A stretch of DNA of 64,000 nucleotides from a virus: positions 19,757 to 83,756 of IMG/VR virus record IMGVR_UViG_3300033144_003384, one strand, 5' to 3'. The number at the start of each line of letters is the position of its first letter. The stretch's first letter is position 1. Positions 896 to 64,000 of the stretch are shown piece by piece. Under the pieces are notes generated by a model. That model made no database searches. It saw only the letters and a program-made list of their open reading frames with translations, and was not told where the DNA came from. The translations under genes were made by a program, and so were the position numbers.

Positions 896-975
896 TGGTG
901 GAGCTGGCGGGAATCGAACCCGCTTCCAGACATTTGCACTTCGGCATTTCAGTCTGTCGAAACCATTACAGCCCC
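896..975 (-). ncRNA. ssrA: minimal tmRNA (tRNA-like domain only)
   Basis: GGGGCUG-UAAUGGUUUCGA-CAGAC...GUCUG-GAA-GCGGG-UUCGAUU-CCCGC-CAGCUCC-ACCA: G3.U70 Ala determinant, stemless D-loop, P2a helix, T-arm, encoded CCA; no room for a tag ORF. Confidence 0.9.
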
Positions 976-3233: not shown

Positions 3234-3355
3234 GTTGTCTCCTTTCCTTTGTTCTAAGTATACCAGTATTCAGGTTGGATGTCAAGTGAATAAACAAAAG
3301 GACTTGACAAAAGGGGTCCAATGCTGTATACTGTAAGTAGGAAGGAGGCCACACT

Positions 3356-3589
3356 ATGACAAAGTTTGACACACCGCTAGCAGAAAAGCTGTACGGAGAG
3401 ATGCCAGACGACGAAAGCGGGTCCGTACAGGAACTCGGCTGGTACGGACGCTACGACAGCGAGCTGGTCATCCTCAACGAAGACTCCGATGGGTTCGTCA
3501 ACACATTCGAAGCAATCGACAAGGCAGACCTCGACCGATTCTGGAGCCTAGTAACCAAGGAATACGAGCTGTACTACAGCATCTCCTGA
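3356..3589 (+). CDS. hypothetical protein
   Basis: TTGACA(3304)-N17-TATACT, AAGGAGG RBS, terminator 3608-3630. Confidence 0.7.
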   Translation: MTKFDTPLAEKLYGEMPDDESGSVQELGWYGRYDSELVILNEDSDGFVNTFEAIDKADLDRFWSLVTKEYELYYSIS

Positions 3590-60192: not shown

Positions 60193-60774
60193 CTACTTGG
60201 CGGCTACTTCTTGGTACTGCTCGATCATTTCTGGTGAGTGTTGTTGTGCCCAGGTATAGAAATCCTGCCACAAACGAACCCCCTCCGGTTTGGGGAAGGG
60301 GTTTTGCGGGTCCTGCACCGTGAGGTTGTTCCACGTATTGTCGGTGGCGTCACCATTGATGTGGCGAATGTGGTGCCCATTGAGAAGGTCGCCCAGATGT
60401 TCATAGGCGACCGCACGGTGTTCTGATATCCGATTGGATATAGAGTCTGGATGACTTGGCCACTGGTATGTCACGTAGCCCTTTGATTCAAACCATCCTT
60501 CGGGAGTTCCGTATTTAGTAGTTGCTTCAGTAATTTCGGTGGGGGCTTTGGGGTGTAAGCCTGATGTCAGGGGGATTTGTCTGGGGCGTCCGCCGCCCTG
60601 TGTACCCGCTTGGGATGGGAGGTTGGAGGTTTGGAAACATGGCCTAGAACAGAATGATTGTTTCTTGGTTTCGCTCAGTCGCCGTTCAAACGATTTGCCG
60701 CATATGGGGTTTTCACAGGTGAGTTCTACCCATTGTGATCTTCTCTGGCCTGCGTCCTTTCGTGTGGTTCTCAA
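60193..60774 (-). CDS. Zn-finger + HNH endonuclease
   Basis: CENPICGKSF...FCSRPC; EHR...HINGDATDNTWNNL. Confidence 0.8.
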   Translation of the reverse strand: MRTTRKDAGQRRSQWVELTCENPICGKSFERRLSETKKQSFCSRPCFQTSNLPSQAGTQGGGRPRQIPLTSGLHPKAPTEITEATTKYGTPEGWFESKGYVTYQWPSHPDSISNRISEHRAVAYEHLGDLLNGHHIRHINGDATDNTWNNLTVQDPQNPFPKPEGVRLWQDFYTWAQQHSPEMIEQYQEVAAK

Positions 60775-60880
60775 AAGATTTCCAAAATAAGTGATTGTTC
60801 CGCTTGACTTTATGACCGTTCGTATAGTATACTACCATCTGGGTAGCTGGTCAACGATCAGTTCCTTACGAACATTATAC

Positions 60881-60962
60881 GCCTTGGTGGCGAAATTGGC
60901 AGACGCATTCGGCTCAAAACCGAACGGTTCACACCATGAGGGTTCGACTCCCTCCCGAGGCA
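60881..60962 (+). tRNA. tRNA-Leu(CAA)
   Basis: cloverleaf, loop CTCAAAA, long variable arm. Confidence 0.9.
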
Positions 60963-61041
60963 CAAGGCACCGAAAGGTGTTAGTCGACTGGAGAGAATAC
61001 TCCGACCGACGGTTTATTGATAATTGCATAGCGATCCAAAT

Positions 61042-61114
61042 GTGCTGGTAGCTCAGTGGCTAGAGCGCCGCGGTGACATCGCGGAAGTCGCTGGTTCAAA
61101 TCCAGCTCAGCACA
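61042..61114 (+). tRNA. tRNA-Val(GAC)
   Basis: cloverleaf, loop GTGACAT. Confidence 0.9.
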
Positions 61115-61176
61115 CTGGGAACAGGAAGCAGATCACGCAGTAGTGGGGTCGGCTCATAACACACCTGTTCCCTCTT

Positions 61177-61259
61177 ACAGATGTGGCGGAACAGTAGACG
61201 CGTCAGGTTGAGAGCCTGGTAGGGGCAACTCTGTGCAGGTGCGAATCCTGTCATCTGTA
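61177..61259 (+). tRNA. tRNA-Leu(GAG)
   Basis: cloverleaf, loop TTGAGAG, T-loop TGCGAAT. Confidence 0.85.
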
Positions 61260-61298
61260 CTAGGTTGCCAATCGTGGGGAGTGTGCTACGCTATCCTC

Positions 61299-61838
61299 AT
61301 GGATGGTAACAAAGTTTGTACCCGATGCGATGAAGATAAACCGTTCAGCGCTTTTAACAAAAACAACAACCGTAAAGACGGTCGTCGTTCCGAGTGCAAA
61401 TCGTGTCGGAAGAGCAGGGAATCGTCTCCCTGCCCAACTTGCGGAACTTTGAAGGCTAGGCAAAGTTTGCTTTGCTTCGGCTGTTCGAGAGACGAGATGA
61501 AGCTTGATTCTCCTGAAACGCTAAAATATATGGACCCTTGTGACGTAGCGTGGCTTGCTGGAATCCTAGAAGGCGAGGGATCGTGGGTCAGAAAAGGCAA
61601 GGATCGAGTCTCGGTTCAGGTGGCGATGACGGATAGAGACATTGTCTACCGCTTAAGGAAGATAACTGGAGTTGGCAATATCTTCGGACCCTACAAGAGG
61701 GAAGCTCATCACAAAGAACTCTGGGTCTGGTCGGTTGGGGCCATTAACCATGCTAGGGATGTCACGGACAAGGTCCTTCCTTACCTTGGACAGCGAAGAA
61801 AGGCAAAGGCTGTCAAGCTTTTTGGAACGTGGGAATAG
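61299..61838 (+). CDS. Zn-finger + single-motif LAGLIDADG homing endonuclease
   Basis: four CxxC pairs, AWLAGILEGEG; leaderless after TGC-TACGCT. Confidence 0.85.
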   Translation: MDGNKVCTRCDEDKPFSAFNKNNNRKDGRRSECKSCRKSRESSPCPTCGTLKARQSLLCFGCSRDEMKLDSPETLKYMDPCDVAWLAGILEGEGSWVRKGKDRVSVQVAMTDRDIVYRLRKITGVGNIFGPYKREAHHKELWVWSVGAINHARDVTDKVLPYLGQRRKAKAVKLFGTWE

Positions 61839-61901
61839 CTCAGTAGGCAGAGCGCAACCTTGCCAAGGTTGAGGTCGCCGGTTCGACTCCGGTTTCCCGC
61901 T
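61829..61901 (+). tRNA. tRNA-Gly(GCC)
   Basis: cloverleaf, loop TTGCCAA. Confidence 0.92.
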
Positions 61902-61922
61902 CCGCTCCTAACGGAGCAATAA

Positions 61923-61995
61923 TGGGAGGTGGGTTGATGGTATCCCACCTTGTCTCTGAAACAAGGCCACGAAGGTTCGAGTCCTTCTCTCCCAG
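61923..61995 (+). tRNA. tRNA-Gln(CTG)
   Basis: cloverleaf, loop CTCTGAA. Confidence 0.85.
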
Positions 61996-62028
61996 CGGTT
62001 CCTGAGCATGACACCAAACTGCTCACAT

Positions 62029-62102
62029 AGGAGATAGGCGACGGGTGCCGATCAGATTCCAAACCTGATGTCGAGCGGGTTCGACTCCTGCATCTCCTGC
62101 CA
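62029..62102 (+). tRNA. tRNA-Trp(CCA)
   Basis: loop TTCCAAA, G73, encoded CCA; atypical D-arm. Confidence 0.8.
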
Positions 62103-62244
62103 CGGTGAGTTTCCGGATCACTCCGGCACGCCCAAACGGGCGTGGCTCATCAATGCGGTGATTCCCTCATTACACCGCGCTACCCGCTTGTCGGGAAAAG
62201 GGTCATGACGATGATCAAATGGTGTGACAATTAATGAGGTTTGA

Positions 62245-62319
62245 TGACAGTGCGCTCCGGTCGGGCGAGCTTGCCTGATAAGCAAGCTGTGCAGAGTTCA
62301 ACCCTCTGACTGTCAACCA
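62245..62319 (+). tRNA. tRNA-Ile(GAT), atypical
   Basis: loop CTGATAA, encoded CCA; 5-bp D-stem. Confidence 0.75.
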
Positions 62320-62320
62320 A

Positions 62321-62392
62321 TCCAAGGTGGCCGACTGGCAAGGCGGCTGGCTGTTAACCAGTGCAATGTGGGTTCGAATCCCGCCCTTGGAG
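62321..62392 (+). tRNA. tRNA-Asn(GTT)
   Basis: cloverleaf, loop CTGTTAA. Confidence 0.9.
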
Positions 62393-62393
62393 C

Positions 62394-62460
62394 TGTGACG
62401 TAACTCAGGGAGTATTCTGCTCTGTGACAGCGGAAGAGGGGTTCGAGTCCCCGCGTCACC
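62394..62460 (+). tRNA. tRNA-His(GTG), atypical
   Basis: loop CTGTGAC; 3-nt D-loop, extended anticodon stem, 4-bp T-stem. Confidence 0.65.
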
Positions 62461-62462
62461 CC

Positions 62463-62536
62463 GGCGACTTAGACTAACCGGATAAGTTCCCTGCCTTTCA
62501 AGCAGGTTGATATGGGTTCGAGCCCCATAGTCGTCA
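62463..62536 (+). tRNA. tRNA-Glu(TTC)
   Basis: cloverleaf, loop CTTTCAA. Confidence 0.88.
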
Positions 62537-62640
62537 CAAACGGCCCGTTGGAAGTCGTGACCGTCAGCGTATCAGGGCGCATTGGCGAATAAGAAGAAGC
62601 GAAGATACTCTGATTGTCAGCTTCAACTTGATCCAACAAA

Positions 62641-62713
62641 CAGGATGTAGCTCAGATGGAAGAGCCCCCGCCTCCTAAGCGGAAACGCCCAGGTTCAAAT
62701 CCTGGCATCCTGG
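62641..62713 (+). tRNA. tRNA-Arg(CCT)
   Basis: cloverleaf, loop CTCCTAA. Confidence 0.88.
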
Positions 62714-62857
62714 CGAGAGCAAGGTCCCTACGAAACCACGCGACGCTTCGGCCTCTCCGTGCTGGCATACCTTGCTCCCAATCGAGAGATGTAAGACGGT
62801 TTCCACAGGGCAGCACATAACCGTGGCCACGGCCTGCCTGGAACGCATTCTCTTCAC

Positions 62858-62938
62858 GCCGATATGACGGAACGGTAGACGTAGGGAGCTTAAACCTCCT
62901 GGGCGAAAGCCATGCAGGTTCAACTCCTGTTATCGGCA
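62858..62938 (+). tRNA. tRNA-Leu(TAA)
   Basis: cloverleaf, loop CTTAAAC, long variable arm. Confidence 0.9.
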
Positions 62939-62939
62939 C

Positions 62940-63508
62940 GAGACTGATGGACAAGTTATCGCTCTACCCCGTAGCTTCGGCAGGCGGGATGAGAGGAACC
63001 TCAGGACATCTCTGCATAAGGAAGGAGACGAAAGTCGCTTTTACTTCCGAGGATGCGACCGCAAACAGACGTAGCAGGAGTGCAGTGCTTAGCGTCGGGT
63101 AGCGGGCCAATAGATAGATGATAACTATGCTATCATGTCTCCATGAACGAAGTTGACGCAGCATGGGTAGCAGGCTTACTGGAAGGCGAAGCGTGTTTCG
63201 ACACAAACGCCGGAGGTAAGCGAAATCGTGTTGGGGCAGCCTATCCGAGAATCCGGATTGAGATGAAGGACAGAGATGTTCTCGTCAAGTTGAAGGATAT
63301 CTTGGGTGGTGTTGGTGGAGAGGTAAGGGAAGTCATTAGACAAAACCCGAATCATTCCAACACTTATTGCTATCAAGTTGGGGCTAAGGGTGACGTAAAG
63401 GTCATCCTTGAAGCAACGCTTTCCCACTACGGAGAGCGTCGCAGAGAAGCCGTACTTGGTCTCATGGAGATTTGCTAGTTACAGGATTCTGGGTACAGAT
63501 TCAGTTTC
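62940..63508 (+). ncRNA. rnpB: compact RNase P RNA interrupted by a homing endonuclease ORF
   Basis: P1 62940-47/63501-08; P2 62954-60/63120-26; CR-I GAGGAA + P4 CC(U)CAGGA pairing UUCUGGG in CR-V ACAGGAUUCUGGGUAC; CR-IV UAGAUAGAU; GGU loop. Confidence 0.85.
63143..63478 (+). CDS. single-motif LAGLIDADG homing endonuclease inside the RNase P RNA gene
   Basis: AWVAGLLEGEA, IEMKDRDVL; TGC-TATCAT ends 6 nt upstream of the ATG. Confidence 0.85.
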   Translation: MNEVDAAWVAGLLEGEACFDTNAGGKRNRVGAAYPRIRIEMKDRDVLVKLKDILGGVGGEVREVIRQNPNHSNTYCYQVGAKGDVKVILEATLSHYGERRREAVLGLMEIC

Positions 63509-63623
63509 ACACGCGCAGGCCCACGGTAAAGGTGGGTGAGCTTGGGAACCGACCGTATAGTAGCGCTACAATACGCGGAAAGGCCTTTGTAACAAGGGGG
63601 TGAAGGCCCCTCCCTTCGCTTCC

Positions 63624-63694
63624 GATTCCCGAGCCAGACGGCCCGGCGGCGGATTGCAAACCCGCATAACTCGGTTCGACTCCGAGGGGAATCT
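63624..63694 (+). tRNA. tRNA-Cys(GCA)
   Basis: cloverleaf, loop TTGCAAA, U73. Confidence 0.85.
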
Positions 63695-63698
63695 CTAA

Positions 63699-63769
63699 GC
63701 ACCTGTAACTTAACGGAAAAGTAGTTGGCTCTTAACCAATTAATCGGGGTTCGATTCCCTGTAGGTGTA
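63699..63769 (+). tRNA. tRNA-Lys(CTT)
   Basis: cloverleaf, loop CTCTTAA. Confidence 0.88.
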
Positions 63770-63774
63770 CGAAT

Positions 63775-63848
63775 GGACCTTTAGCTCAATCAGGTAGAGC
63801 AGCGGACTTTTAATCCGAAGGTTCAGAGTTCGATTCTCTGAGGGTCCA
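63775..63848 (+). tRNA. tRNA-Lys(TTT)
   Basis: cloverleaf, loop CTTTTAA. Confidence 0.92.
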
Positions 63849-63889
63849 CGACAGCCGAAGGGTTGTAAACAGTCGAAAGGCTGTATTGA

Positions 63890-63964
63890 GCTTCCTTAAC
63901 TCAACAAGCAGAGTCCGGCCTTTTAAGCCACGAGACGAGGGTGCAAGTCCTTCAGGAAGTACCA
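63890..63964 (+). tRNA. second, degenerate tRNA-Lys(TTT)
   Basis: loop CTTTTAA, 3-bp anticodon stem, D-loop without GG, T-loop TGCAAGT, encoded CCA. Confidence 0.7.
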
Positions 63965-64000
63965 AATGCCTACGATATCAGGCCAATCAACTGATTCATC

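Follow-up and report, generated by a model that had tools for sequence, protein, structure and literature searches.

An intron-less homing endonuclease cassette, closed by its own helix, inside a reduced RNase P RNA gene of a phage

The window analyzed here (64,000 nucleotides, nt) is the final 64 kb of an 83,756-bp virus record in IMG/VR (IMGVR_UViG_3300033144_003384). Close to its end, inside a tRNA gene array, the open reading frame (ORF) of a LAGLIDADG homing endonuclease interrupts the gene for a structured RNA. By its sequence and conserved pairing, the RNA at 62940-63509 on the plus strand is a member of a phage-borne family of reduced ribonuclease P (RNase P) RNAs, with a core of ∼217 nt once the insert is subtracted, and the stretch 63127-63480 is an insertion into it. 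We consider it probable that this insertion is an intron-less endonuclease cassette housed in the J2/4 linker of the RNA gene and that the ribozyme has been kept. The J2/4 linker corresponds to the place of helix P19 in some RNase P RNAs. The elements of the interrupted gene are as follows.

62940-63126 (+): 5' segment of the RNase P RNA (profile, tested structure and minimum free energy (MFE) fold)
62940-47 (+): 5' strand of P1 (MFE fold)
62954-60 (+): 5' strand of P2 (MFE fold)
about 62968-88 (+): P3 hairpin
62993-63006 (+): conserved region CR-I and 5' strand of P4 (GAGGA, 3 nt, bulged U, 5 nt)
63120-26 (+): 3' strand of P2
63127-63480 (+): 354-nt insertion, the homing endonuclease cassette, in the J2/4 linker (DNA contigs, profile and alignment A2)
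63128-63136 (+): candidate TGn-extended -10 element (TGC TATCAT), six bases before the ATG, read from the sequence
63129-63146 (+): 5' arm of the closing helix, holding the -10 element and the start codon
63143-63478 (+): LAGLIDADG homing endonuclease gene, 111 amino acids (aa), single motif (Pfam, PHROG, AlphaFold2 and Foldseek)
63462-63479 (+): 3' arm of the closing helix, comprising the final ORF codons, the stop codon and one extra base
63481-63509 (+): 3' segment of the RNase P RNA, with CR-V and the 3' strand of P4 at 63481-95 and the 3' strand of P1 at 63502-09

The host RNA and the insertion

The 5' segment also holds P5, three more helices and a J18/2-like stretch, AUAGAUAGAUGA, which aligns to CuAGAugAAUG of the RNase P model by way of a relative, locus L098. 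P4 is complete, with 8 of 8 pairs formed between 62998-63006 and 63487-94 and a bulged U after the third pair; a descriptor of P4 gave a single match in 1.41 Mb, at the window RNA, and 0 to 2 matches in shuffled sequence. The MFE fold of 62940-63510 contains P2 and an 8-bp P1 that joins the RNA end to end.

Because the Rfam RNase P models were silent on the window, relatives were sought. A 17-nt word from CR-I led to L081, an insert-free RNA of ∼190 nt with the same CR-I, a AGAUGAAUG stretch, P2 and CR-V, while motif scans, whose listed matches were mostly due to chance, together with the P4 descriptor yielded at least L098, L111, L127, L145, L142, L313 and L314, and a pattern drawn from the 5' part alone returned 24 metagenome and 5 IMG/VR loci. 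The 5' pattern had 0 matches in 185,579 species genomes, neither the window RNA nor L098 nor L314 had a match in the GenBank phage collection, and the RNA was absent from 80 loci related through the head protein, only 7 of which carry tRNAs. Family members were found in viral and metagenome contigs only, consistently within or beside tRNA genes. The family (L081, L098, L111, L142, L313-L338 and the window) is apparently undescribed and ranges from a ∼190-nt minimal to a 309-nt form, and its P4 departs from the Rfam consensus through changes on both strands. Four 7/8-pair matches to the descriptor (L190/L139, L216 and L240) and one further locus, L390, were dropped as apparent chance.

Several relatives are recognized by Rfam. 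L098 aligns over the full length of RF00010, the model for class A RNAs of bacteria, at 92 bits (E 6e-29), and the same model matches L142 at 46.8 bits (E 1.8e-11) and L314 at 42.9 bits (E 3.5e-10); L313 matches the archaeal model RF00373 at 46.2 bits (E 4.6e-10) and L111 the archaeal model at 29.9 bits (E 6e-5). The gathering cut-off of RF00010 is 100 bits, and the window and the family members lie below it. The L098 RNA (L098:4115-4423) spans the full RF00010 model yet has nothing for 24 P15-P17 positions.

A profile hidden Markov model, built with nhmmer from 21 insert-free homologues with the window excluded, matched 62951-63125 at E 1.2e-29 (profile positions 37-189) and picked up again at 63481-99 (positions 195-213), positions 190-194 being replaced. 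We then scored a 38-pair family structure, with P2 and P4 entered as a pseudoknot, on 22 sequences including the window. In this structure 95.2% of the cells are paired compared with 79.1% after shuffling (0/500 shuffles as high), and controls in which the structure was slid gave 28 to 40%. Changes on both sides, that is compensatory ones, occur at 21 of the 38 pairs, P2 covaries at 5 of its 6 pairs, and the row of the window itself has standard pairs at 36 of 38 positions. RNAalifold, applied to the 21 insert-free members, recovered P5, P4 including the bulged U, and other helices, with both-side changes at 15 of 32 pairs. The profile match, the Rfam scores of the relatives and the pair statistics together bear out the original prediction, made from the letters of the window, that the host is an RNase P RNA. 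Of the alignments used, A1 leaves out L145, L320, L323 and L326, each truncated by the end of its contig, as well as L322, L325 and L335, which are exact duplicates; A2 leaves out L329 and L334 in addition.

The insertion itself is seen in DNA. A 528-nt contig from a marine metagenome (X6), ∼92% identical to the window, covers 62785-63126 at 27 differences and continues at 63481-63505; exactly 354 nt are left out, and CTCG joins 63126 to 63481. Contigs X1 and X9, from two other studies, depart from the window at 63123 and 63122, respectively, and run directly into ...CUCG-ACAGGA... and ...CCUG-ACAGAA..., and a further contig, X2, stops short of the junction. All of these are DNA contigs; among the public runs listed for the stretch, none was from RNA. 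The insert-free form is present as DNA and is therefore an allele, not a splice product. The original prediction had proposed a search for such alleles in related phages, and they exist in X6, X1, X9 and the metagenome and IMG/VR loci; the 354 nt missing from X6 coincide with the boundaries that it had given to the insert. The 3' strand of P2 is followed by CR-V after 4 to 6 nt in 22 of the 24 metagenome loci (counting L328, whose CR-V variant was missed by the regular expression and added on reading) and in 5 of 5 IMG/VR loci.

Where X1 and X6 differ from the window, 62954-56 co-vary with 63124-26 (three P2 pairs), 62970 with 62986 (one P3 pair) and 63003/63004 with their partners in CR-V (two P4 pairs), and the remaining placed differences lie in loops. 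The 19 insert-free homologues of alignment A2 place the ORF between the P2 3' strand and CR-V (63481-95); together with the profile this agrees with the predicted J2/4 ('P19') position. One part of the prediction did not hold, namely that the gene is lodged in a pre-existing helix: the linker of the insert-free relatives is single-stranded and 4 to 6 nt long, and only L098 has a 6-bp hairpin at the insertion site. This hairpin lies in a variable, unpaired stretch of RF00010, where L098 has a 3-nt insertion and another viral RNase P RNA (L391, below) has 12 fewer positions; judged by the L098 hairpin, the site accommodates a helix. A by-eye search of the insert-free junction for a pseudo-palindromic target of a homodimer was unconvincing.

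Rfam found no group I or group II intron in the window at E≤10. The ORF accounts for 336 of the 354 nt, and because the non-coding remainder is limited to 16 nt on its 5' side and 2 nt on its 3' side, the insert holds no intron core, in keeping with the earlier statement that none fits in the flanks.

The closing helix, the enzyme and a second kind of insert

The two ends of the insert are complementary to each other, GUCUCCAUGA (63137-46) to UCAUGGAGAU (63462-71) and, further out, GCUA (63129-32) to UAGU (63476-79), so that a helix of 16 pairs over 18 positions with two mismatches can form. This pairing had been predicted and is supported by the sequence itself, by an inverted repeat at 63130-46/63462-78 returned by a repeat search, by the fold and by shuffling: the MFE fold of 62940-63510 forms the helix along with P1 and P2 (z -5.4, 0/100 shuffles as stable), and the terminal 25-nt duplex of the insert has a free energy of -21.6 kcal/mol, which was equaled by 1 of 1000 shuffles and by 0 of 279 internal windows. 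Both strands of the closing helix come from the ends of the insert, not from the host RNA. One DNA stretch would serve at once as RNA helix, promoter element, start codon and protein C-terminus.

The encoded protein matches Pfam LAGLIDADG_1 (PF00961) with 24.3 bits (E 6.1e-5), above the 23.1-bit cut-off, and phrog_5046 at E 6.4e-16. Its AGLLEGE motif, with the acidic residues, is invariant across 7 aligned sequences. From the same 7 sequences AlphaFold2 predicted an α-β-β-α-β-β-α arrangement with a predicted local distance difference test score (pLDDT) of 88.1 and a predicted template modeling score (pTM) of 0.79, and the best Foldseek matches to the model are I-CvuI, I-MsoI, I-CreI, I-Vdi141I and I-TnaI (probability 1.00, query template modeling score (TMq) 0.63-0.76). 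The gene is intact and its product has a predicted I-CreI-like fold; by analogy with I-CreI, the enzyme is probably homodimeric.

Five homologues of 106 to 152 aa share 36 to 42% identity with the protein. A search of IMG/VR with the single protein found no endonuclease relative, and an alignment-based search found a relative encoded in 151 of 271 matched stretches. Among the best 80 loci, which were kept, tRNA or tmRNA (transfer-messenger RNA) genes flank the relatives in 11. A relative with 45% identity over 64 aa lies in L391, where 3 nt separate its end from the 3' end of an RNase P RNA, and elsewhere relatives start 7 to 12 nt past a tmRNA (L393) or a tRNA-His (L400, L403). L391 is a 102-kb viral contig with a canonical class A RNase P RNA (RF00010, 259 bits) in a tRNA array, and it also has a Y RNA-like (YrlA) match at 3318-3447. 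The positions of these genes are given below.

L391, 2954-3294 (-) and 2501-2950 (+): RNase P RNA and LAGLIDADG gene
L393, 2092-2489 and 2501-2719: tmRNA and endonuclease gene
L400 and L403, 2421-2494 and 2501-2782: tRNA-His and endonuclease gene

Because the relatives have tRNA, tmRNA and RNase P RNA genes as neighbors, we read the clade as one of free-standing endonuclease genes beside conserved phage RNA genes, with one member inside such a gene. The arrangement suggests that the clade homes beside structured RNA genes.

The candidate -10 element (TGC-TATCAT at 63128-36) is present where the original prediction had placed it, and all the other letters and coordinates that it quoted are correct as well. 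Transcription from the element, if it is used, would begin on the A of the ATG (A63143) and give a leaderless mRNA. The window contains 31 instances of TANNNT-N6-ATG/GTG, of which 16 open ORFs of at least 80 aa, compared with 18.9% for all ATG/GTG; because of this enrichment at ORF starts, leaderless transcripts may be frequent in the phage. The TGn-TANNNT-N6-ATG geometry is also seen at a second LAGLIDADG gene in the array (61299-61838) and at ORF 60131(-). Within the fold of the array transcript, 63463-65 form pairs with the AUG, and a transcript from 63143 would be without the 5' arm of the closing helix.

Two family members, L315 and L338, carry an insert of ∼650 nt at the identical site, which encodes a 195- or 196-aa protein with GIY-YIG and NUMOD3 domains, and in neither was an intron matched at E≤1. 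The non-coding remainder of the L338 insert is ∼65 nt, its end duplex (-13.2 kcal/mol) was as good in 0 of 1000 shuffles, and its MFE fold closes the insert by ∼22 bp. Stem-closed ends at a peripheral RNA site are thus seen in the window, L338 and L315. In the helix an A-U pair of one allele is U-A in the other, and this swap costs the protein an exchange between Tyr and Asn at its last codon. Identity between the two ORFs is 75%, and of their codon differences 47 are synonymous and 49 non-synonymous. Their 231-nt 5' RNA flanks have 13 differences, of which 8 form 4 compensatory pairs, 3 keep a wobble pair and 2 are unpaired, the classing being our own reading. In our view no other evidence at hand speaks as strongly as these flanks for structural selection still acting on an interrupted RNase P RNA.

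Fate of the interrupted RNA and alternative readings

In the reading that we favor, the enzyme would cut the conserved P2/J2-4/CR-V DNA of insert-free phages during co-infection, and repair of the cut would copy the cassette in by intron-less homing. Within the long transcript of the array, the helix at the insert ends would draw the P2 3' strand and CR-V together, P1, P2 and P4 could then form, and the ribozyme would stay active. The ORF loop might remain intact or be nicked by host RNases, covalent continuity being unnecessary. The same helix would hide the AUG within the array transcript, and the endonuclease would be made from a leaderless mRNA beginning at A63143, directed by TGn-TATCAT in the 5' arm. 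Toleration of the insert by the RNase P RNA is likely, because the window keeps 36 of the 38 pairs and the flanks of L315 and L338 diverge in a pair-preserving manner. With a little more confidence than doubt, we extend this to a broader proposal: at least two unrelated families, LAGLIDADG and GIY-YIG, would colonize phage RNase P RNA, each with its own insulating helix, the ribozyme being active whole or in two pieces and the endonuclease being served by an internal leaderless promoter.

A number of observations weigh against this reading. The Rfam RNase P models gave no match for the window at the gathering cut-off or, on 601 bases, at E≤10, none for the inserted alleles L315 and L338, and none at E≤1 for the insert-free L081, L330 and L336. 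Since the other inserted alleles are missed too, we do not count the silence on the window against its identity as an RNase P RNA. The specificity domain (P7-P12, J11/12) is mostly gone, with ∼110 nt between P4 and J18/2; the L098 alignment likewise deletes large parts of this region, and the minimal forms have a single hairpin there. Cleavage of pre-tRNA by the family is a prediction. The two cells with non-standard pairs in the row of the window fall in one helix, L315 has a C-C mismatch in P4, and the end duplex of L315 (-11.7 kcal/mol) is marginal, a value reached by 26 of 1000 shuffles. The linker, CUCG in close relatives and AUAAA-like in others, is replaced by the insert, and we take J2/4 to lie near the active site in bacterial RNase P. 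The contigs that define the insert-free allele were matched at 80% likeness with a short side of 25 nt, and they represent relatives, not the same phage. A two-hexamer promoter scan of the window did not pick up the -10 element, and the completeness of the record is estimated at 56%.

Some of these points could be taken to mean that the gene is dead, the insertion having inactivated the phage RNase P RNA so that the phage depends on the enzyme of its host and what flanks the insert is a young pseudogene. Rfam is blind to the interrupted gene, the linker beside CR-V has been replaced, P4 of L315 carries its mismatch, and the existence of close insert-free relatives means that the insertion may be recent. 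However, all helices and conserved motifs are retained, and the placed differences from the insert-free relatives are compensatory or in loops. In L315 and L338, whose inserts have diverged to 75% aa identity, the RNA flanks have changed almost only in ways that preserve pairs, and if the RNA had lost its importance, it would be difficult to account for the helices that close the inserts. We regard a dead gene as unlikely. That the host RNA serves as a decoy or regulator binding RnpA or pre-tRNAs, rather than as a working ribozyme, would fit the minimal members that lack most of the specificity domain, the missing P15-P17 region of L098 and the scores below the Rfam gathering cut-off. It fits poorly with full-model alignments at E values down to 6e-29, with the conservation of P4 and its bulged U, CR-I, CR-V and J18/2, with the consistent placement in or beside tRNA genes and with the canonical 259-bit RNase P RNA of another viral contig, and we judge it highly unlikely.

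Two further alternatives concern the fate of the insert in the transcript. An unrecognized or degenerate true intron would be removed and the exons ligated to an RNA of ∼217 nt; LAGLIDADG genes are usually intron-borne, and the upstream exon ends in U (63126) with a G at 63478 near the 3' end of the insert, as group I introns require. The 16 and 2 nt of non-coding sequence offer no space for a catalytic core, the Rfam group I and II models gave nothing at E≤10 in the window or at E≤1 in L315 and L338, and the insert-free form was met in DNA contigs, all of which makes an intron extremely improbable. Obligatory excision without ligation seems to us a possible, rather doubtful outcome: RNase III or another RNase would cut the helix, leaving a two-piece RNA of ∼190 and 30 nt held together by P1, P2, P4 and the stub of the helix. 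The helix of the window contains two mismatches and is, we presume, at the short end for RNase III substrates. Excision also overlaps with the reading that we favor, in which cutting is not required. In its support, the window has 16 pairs over 18 positions and L338 ∼22 bp, which makes for a long helix, and a long unstructured ORF loop would be a likely RNase target. The layout also resembles that of the RNase III-excised intervening sequence (IVS) of Coxiella, as far as the accessible text describes it (PMC4990558).

The interest of a tolerated, self-insulated cassette lies partly in how such genes persist. We know of no accepted route by which homing endonuclease genes survive in essential genes other than inside self-splicing introns or inteins; if our reading is correct, insulation instead of splicing would be a third way. 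The insert would also show, in a natural RNA, where next to the catalytic P4 helix an insertion is tolerated, and it would be a naturally occurring candidate for a ribozyme in two pieces or with a giant loop, for which matched insert-free alleles are at hand for activity and homing assays. It would, moreover, explain why covariance-model annotation misses such genes.

Genomic setting and relation to known systems

The window holds head and packaging genes (terminase, portal, protease and major head protein) and, from 60881 to its end, a plus-strand tRNA array of at least 14 genes. The interrupted RNA lies in a 759-nt gap between tRNA-Leu, which ends at 62939, and tRNA-Lys, which starts at 63699, its 5' segment beginning 1 base past the end of tRNA-Leu. 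No second RNase P RNA was found on the window's own contig, and no terminator-like site in 60700-64000. Two context features belong to the array.

60804-60833 (+): sigma-70-like promoter candidate (TTGACT-18-TATACT, 10/12), upstream of the tRNA/RNase P array
61299-61838 (+): free-standing gene between tRNA-Leu and tRNA-Gly whose product has a LAGLIDADG domain and, N-terminally, a zinc-finger region

The free-standing gene belongs to the same family as the enzyme at 63143-63478, and an HNH gene (60193-60774, minus strand) lies just upstream of the array. Downstream of the RNase P RNA, a 114-nt spacer (63510-63623, plus strand) has three strong hairpins and no match, unlike the X6 relative, in which a tRNA follows the RNase P RNA directly. 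The element beyond the spacer, at 63624-63693 (plus strand), has the shape of a tRNA: its acceptor stem counts 7 bp, its T arm contains UUCGACU, and a GCA triplet sits in its anticodon arm, which is odd. It goes uncalled by both ARAGORN and Rfam, and related contigs cover it at high depth. At 896-975 (minus strand) the window carries an 80-nt tmRNA-like gene reduced to the tRNA-like domain (Rfam tmRNA, 71.9 bits), in which 18 nt stand in for 312 model positions.

As an RNase P RNA, the host shares with class A (RF00010) the P1-P4 core, the pairing of GAGGA..U.. (CR-I) with ACAGRA.. (CR-V) and an AGAUGA-like J18/2; it differs in its ∼217-nt core with the specificity domain mostly missing, in several P4 pairs changed on both sides and in being phage-encoded. 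A minimal RNase P RNA that lacks the specificity domain is described, in the available portion of the source, as type T of the Thermoproteaceae (PMC8172020). The enzyme is likened to I-CreI, I-MsoI and I-CvuI by its predicted fold and by a LAGLIDADG motif with the acidic residues, whereas it has 111 aa against about 150 to 160, lies in no surrounding intron and is an endonuclease whose cleavage is predicted.

Literature searches, in which subscription journals were thinly covered, found, among the papers listed, neither an endonuclease gene inside RNase P RNA nor a phage-encoded RNase P RNA, and they found no intervening sequence in rnpB; the accessible parts of PMC8172020 and PMC6582537 likewise describe no endonuclease gene inside RNase P RNA. 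The original prediction had gone further in stating that no example of such an element was described. That holds for RNase P RNA as far as these searches reach, and it fails for rRNA, where stem-closed, unspliced inserts are on record in the available text of two sources (PMC4990558, PMC11270868).

The T4 SegB type of endonuclease gene is similar in being intron-less, located in a phage tRNA region and equipped with its own expression signals (PMC6582537, in the part available), but those genes lie between genes, whereas that of the window is inside an RNA gene and would be accommodated by the RNA fold. In the phage nrdA split, an endonuclease gene without intron or intein sits in an essential gene whose product works, according to the accessible portion of PMC3045599; there protein fragments reassemble, and here base-paired RNA segments would do so.

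Closer still are the rRNA inserts. In Candidate Phyla Radiation (CPR) bacteria, 16S and 23S rRNA inserts carry single-domain LAGLIDADG and GIY-YIG genes; over half of the inserts are group-I-like introns, and those bearing GIY-YIG genes all resemble neither intron class (PMC11270868, 2024, from the available text). The present case differs in that the host is a phage RNase P RNA and the insert has no room for an intron. The 23S rRNA IVS of Coxiella burnetii, 428 nt long, stem-closed and excised by RNase III, is likewise a selfish, ORF-bearing insert at a peripheral RNA site, with paired ends, no splicing and a functional host RNA, as set out in the accessible part of PMC4990558; in the window the corresponding function would follow from the conserved structure. 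The host here is a phage RNase P RNA in place of a cellular rRNA, the gene is an intact homing endonuclease (as predicted from its model) in place of an S23p-type protein, entry was into a single-stranded linker where the IVS replaced a hairpin tip, and excision by RNase III is by analogy a candidate only. On the evidence of the sequences compared, what appears to be new is a stem-closed, unspliced endonuclease insert in RNase P RNA, such inserts being known from rRNA.

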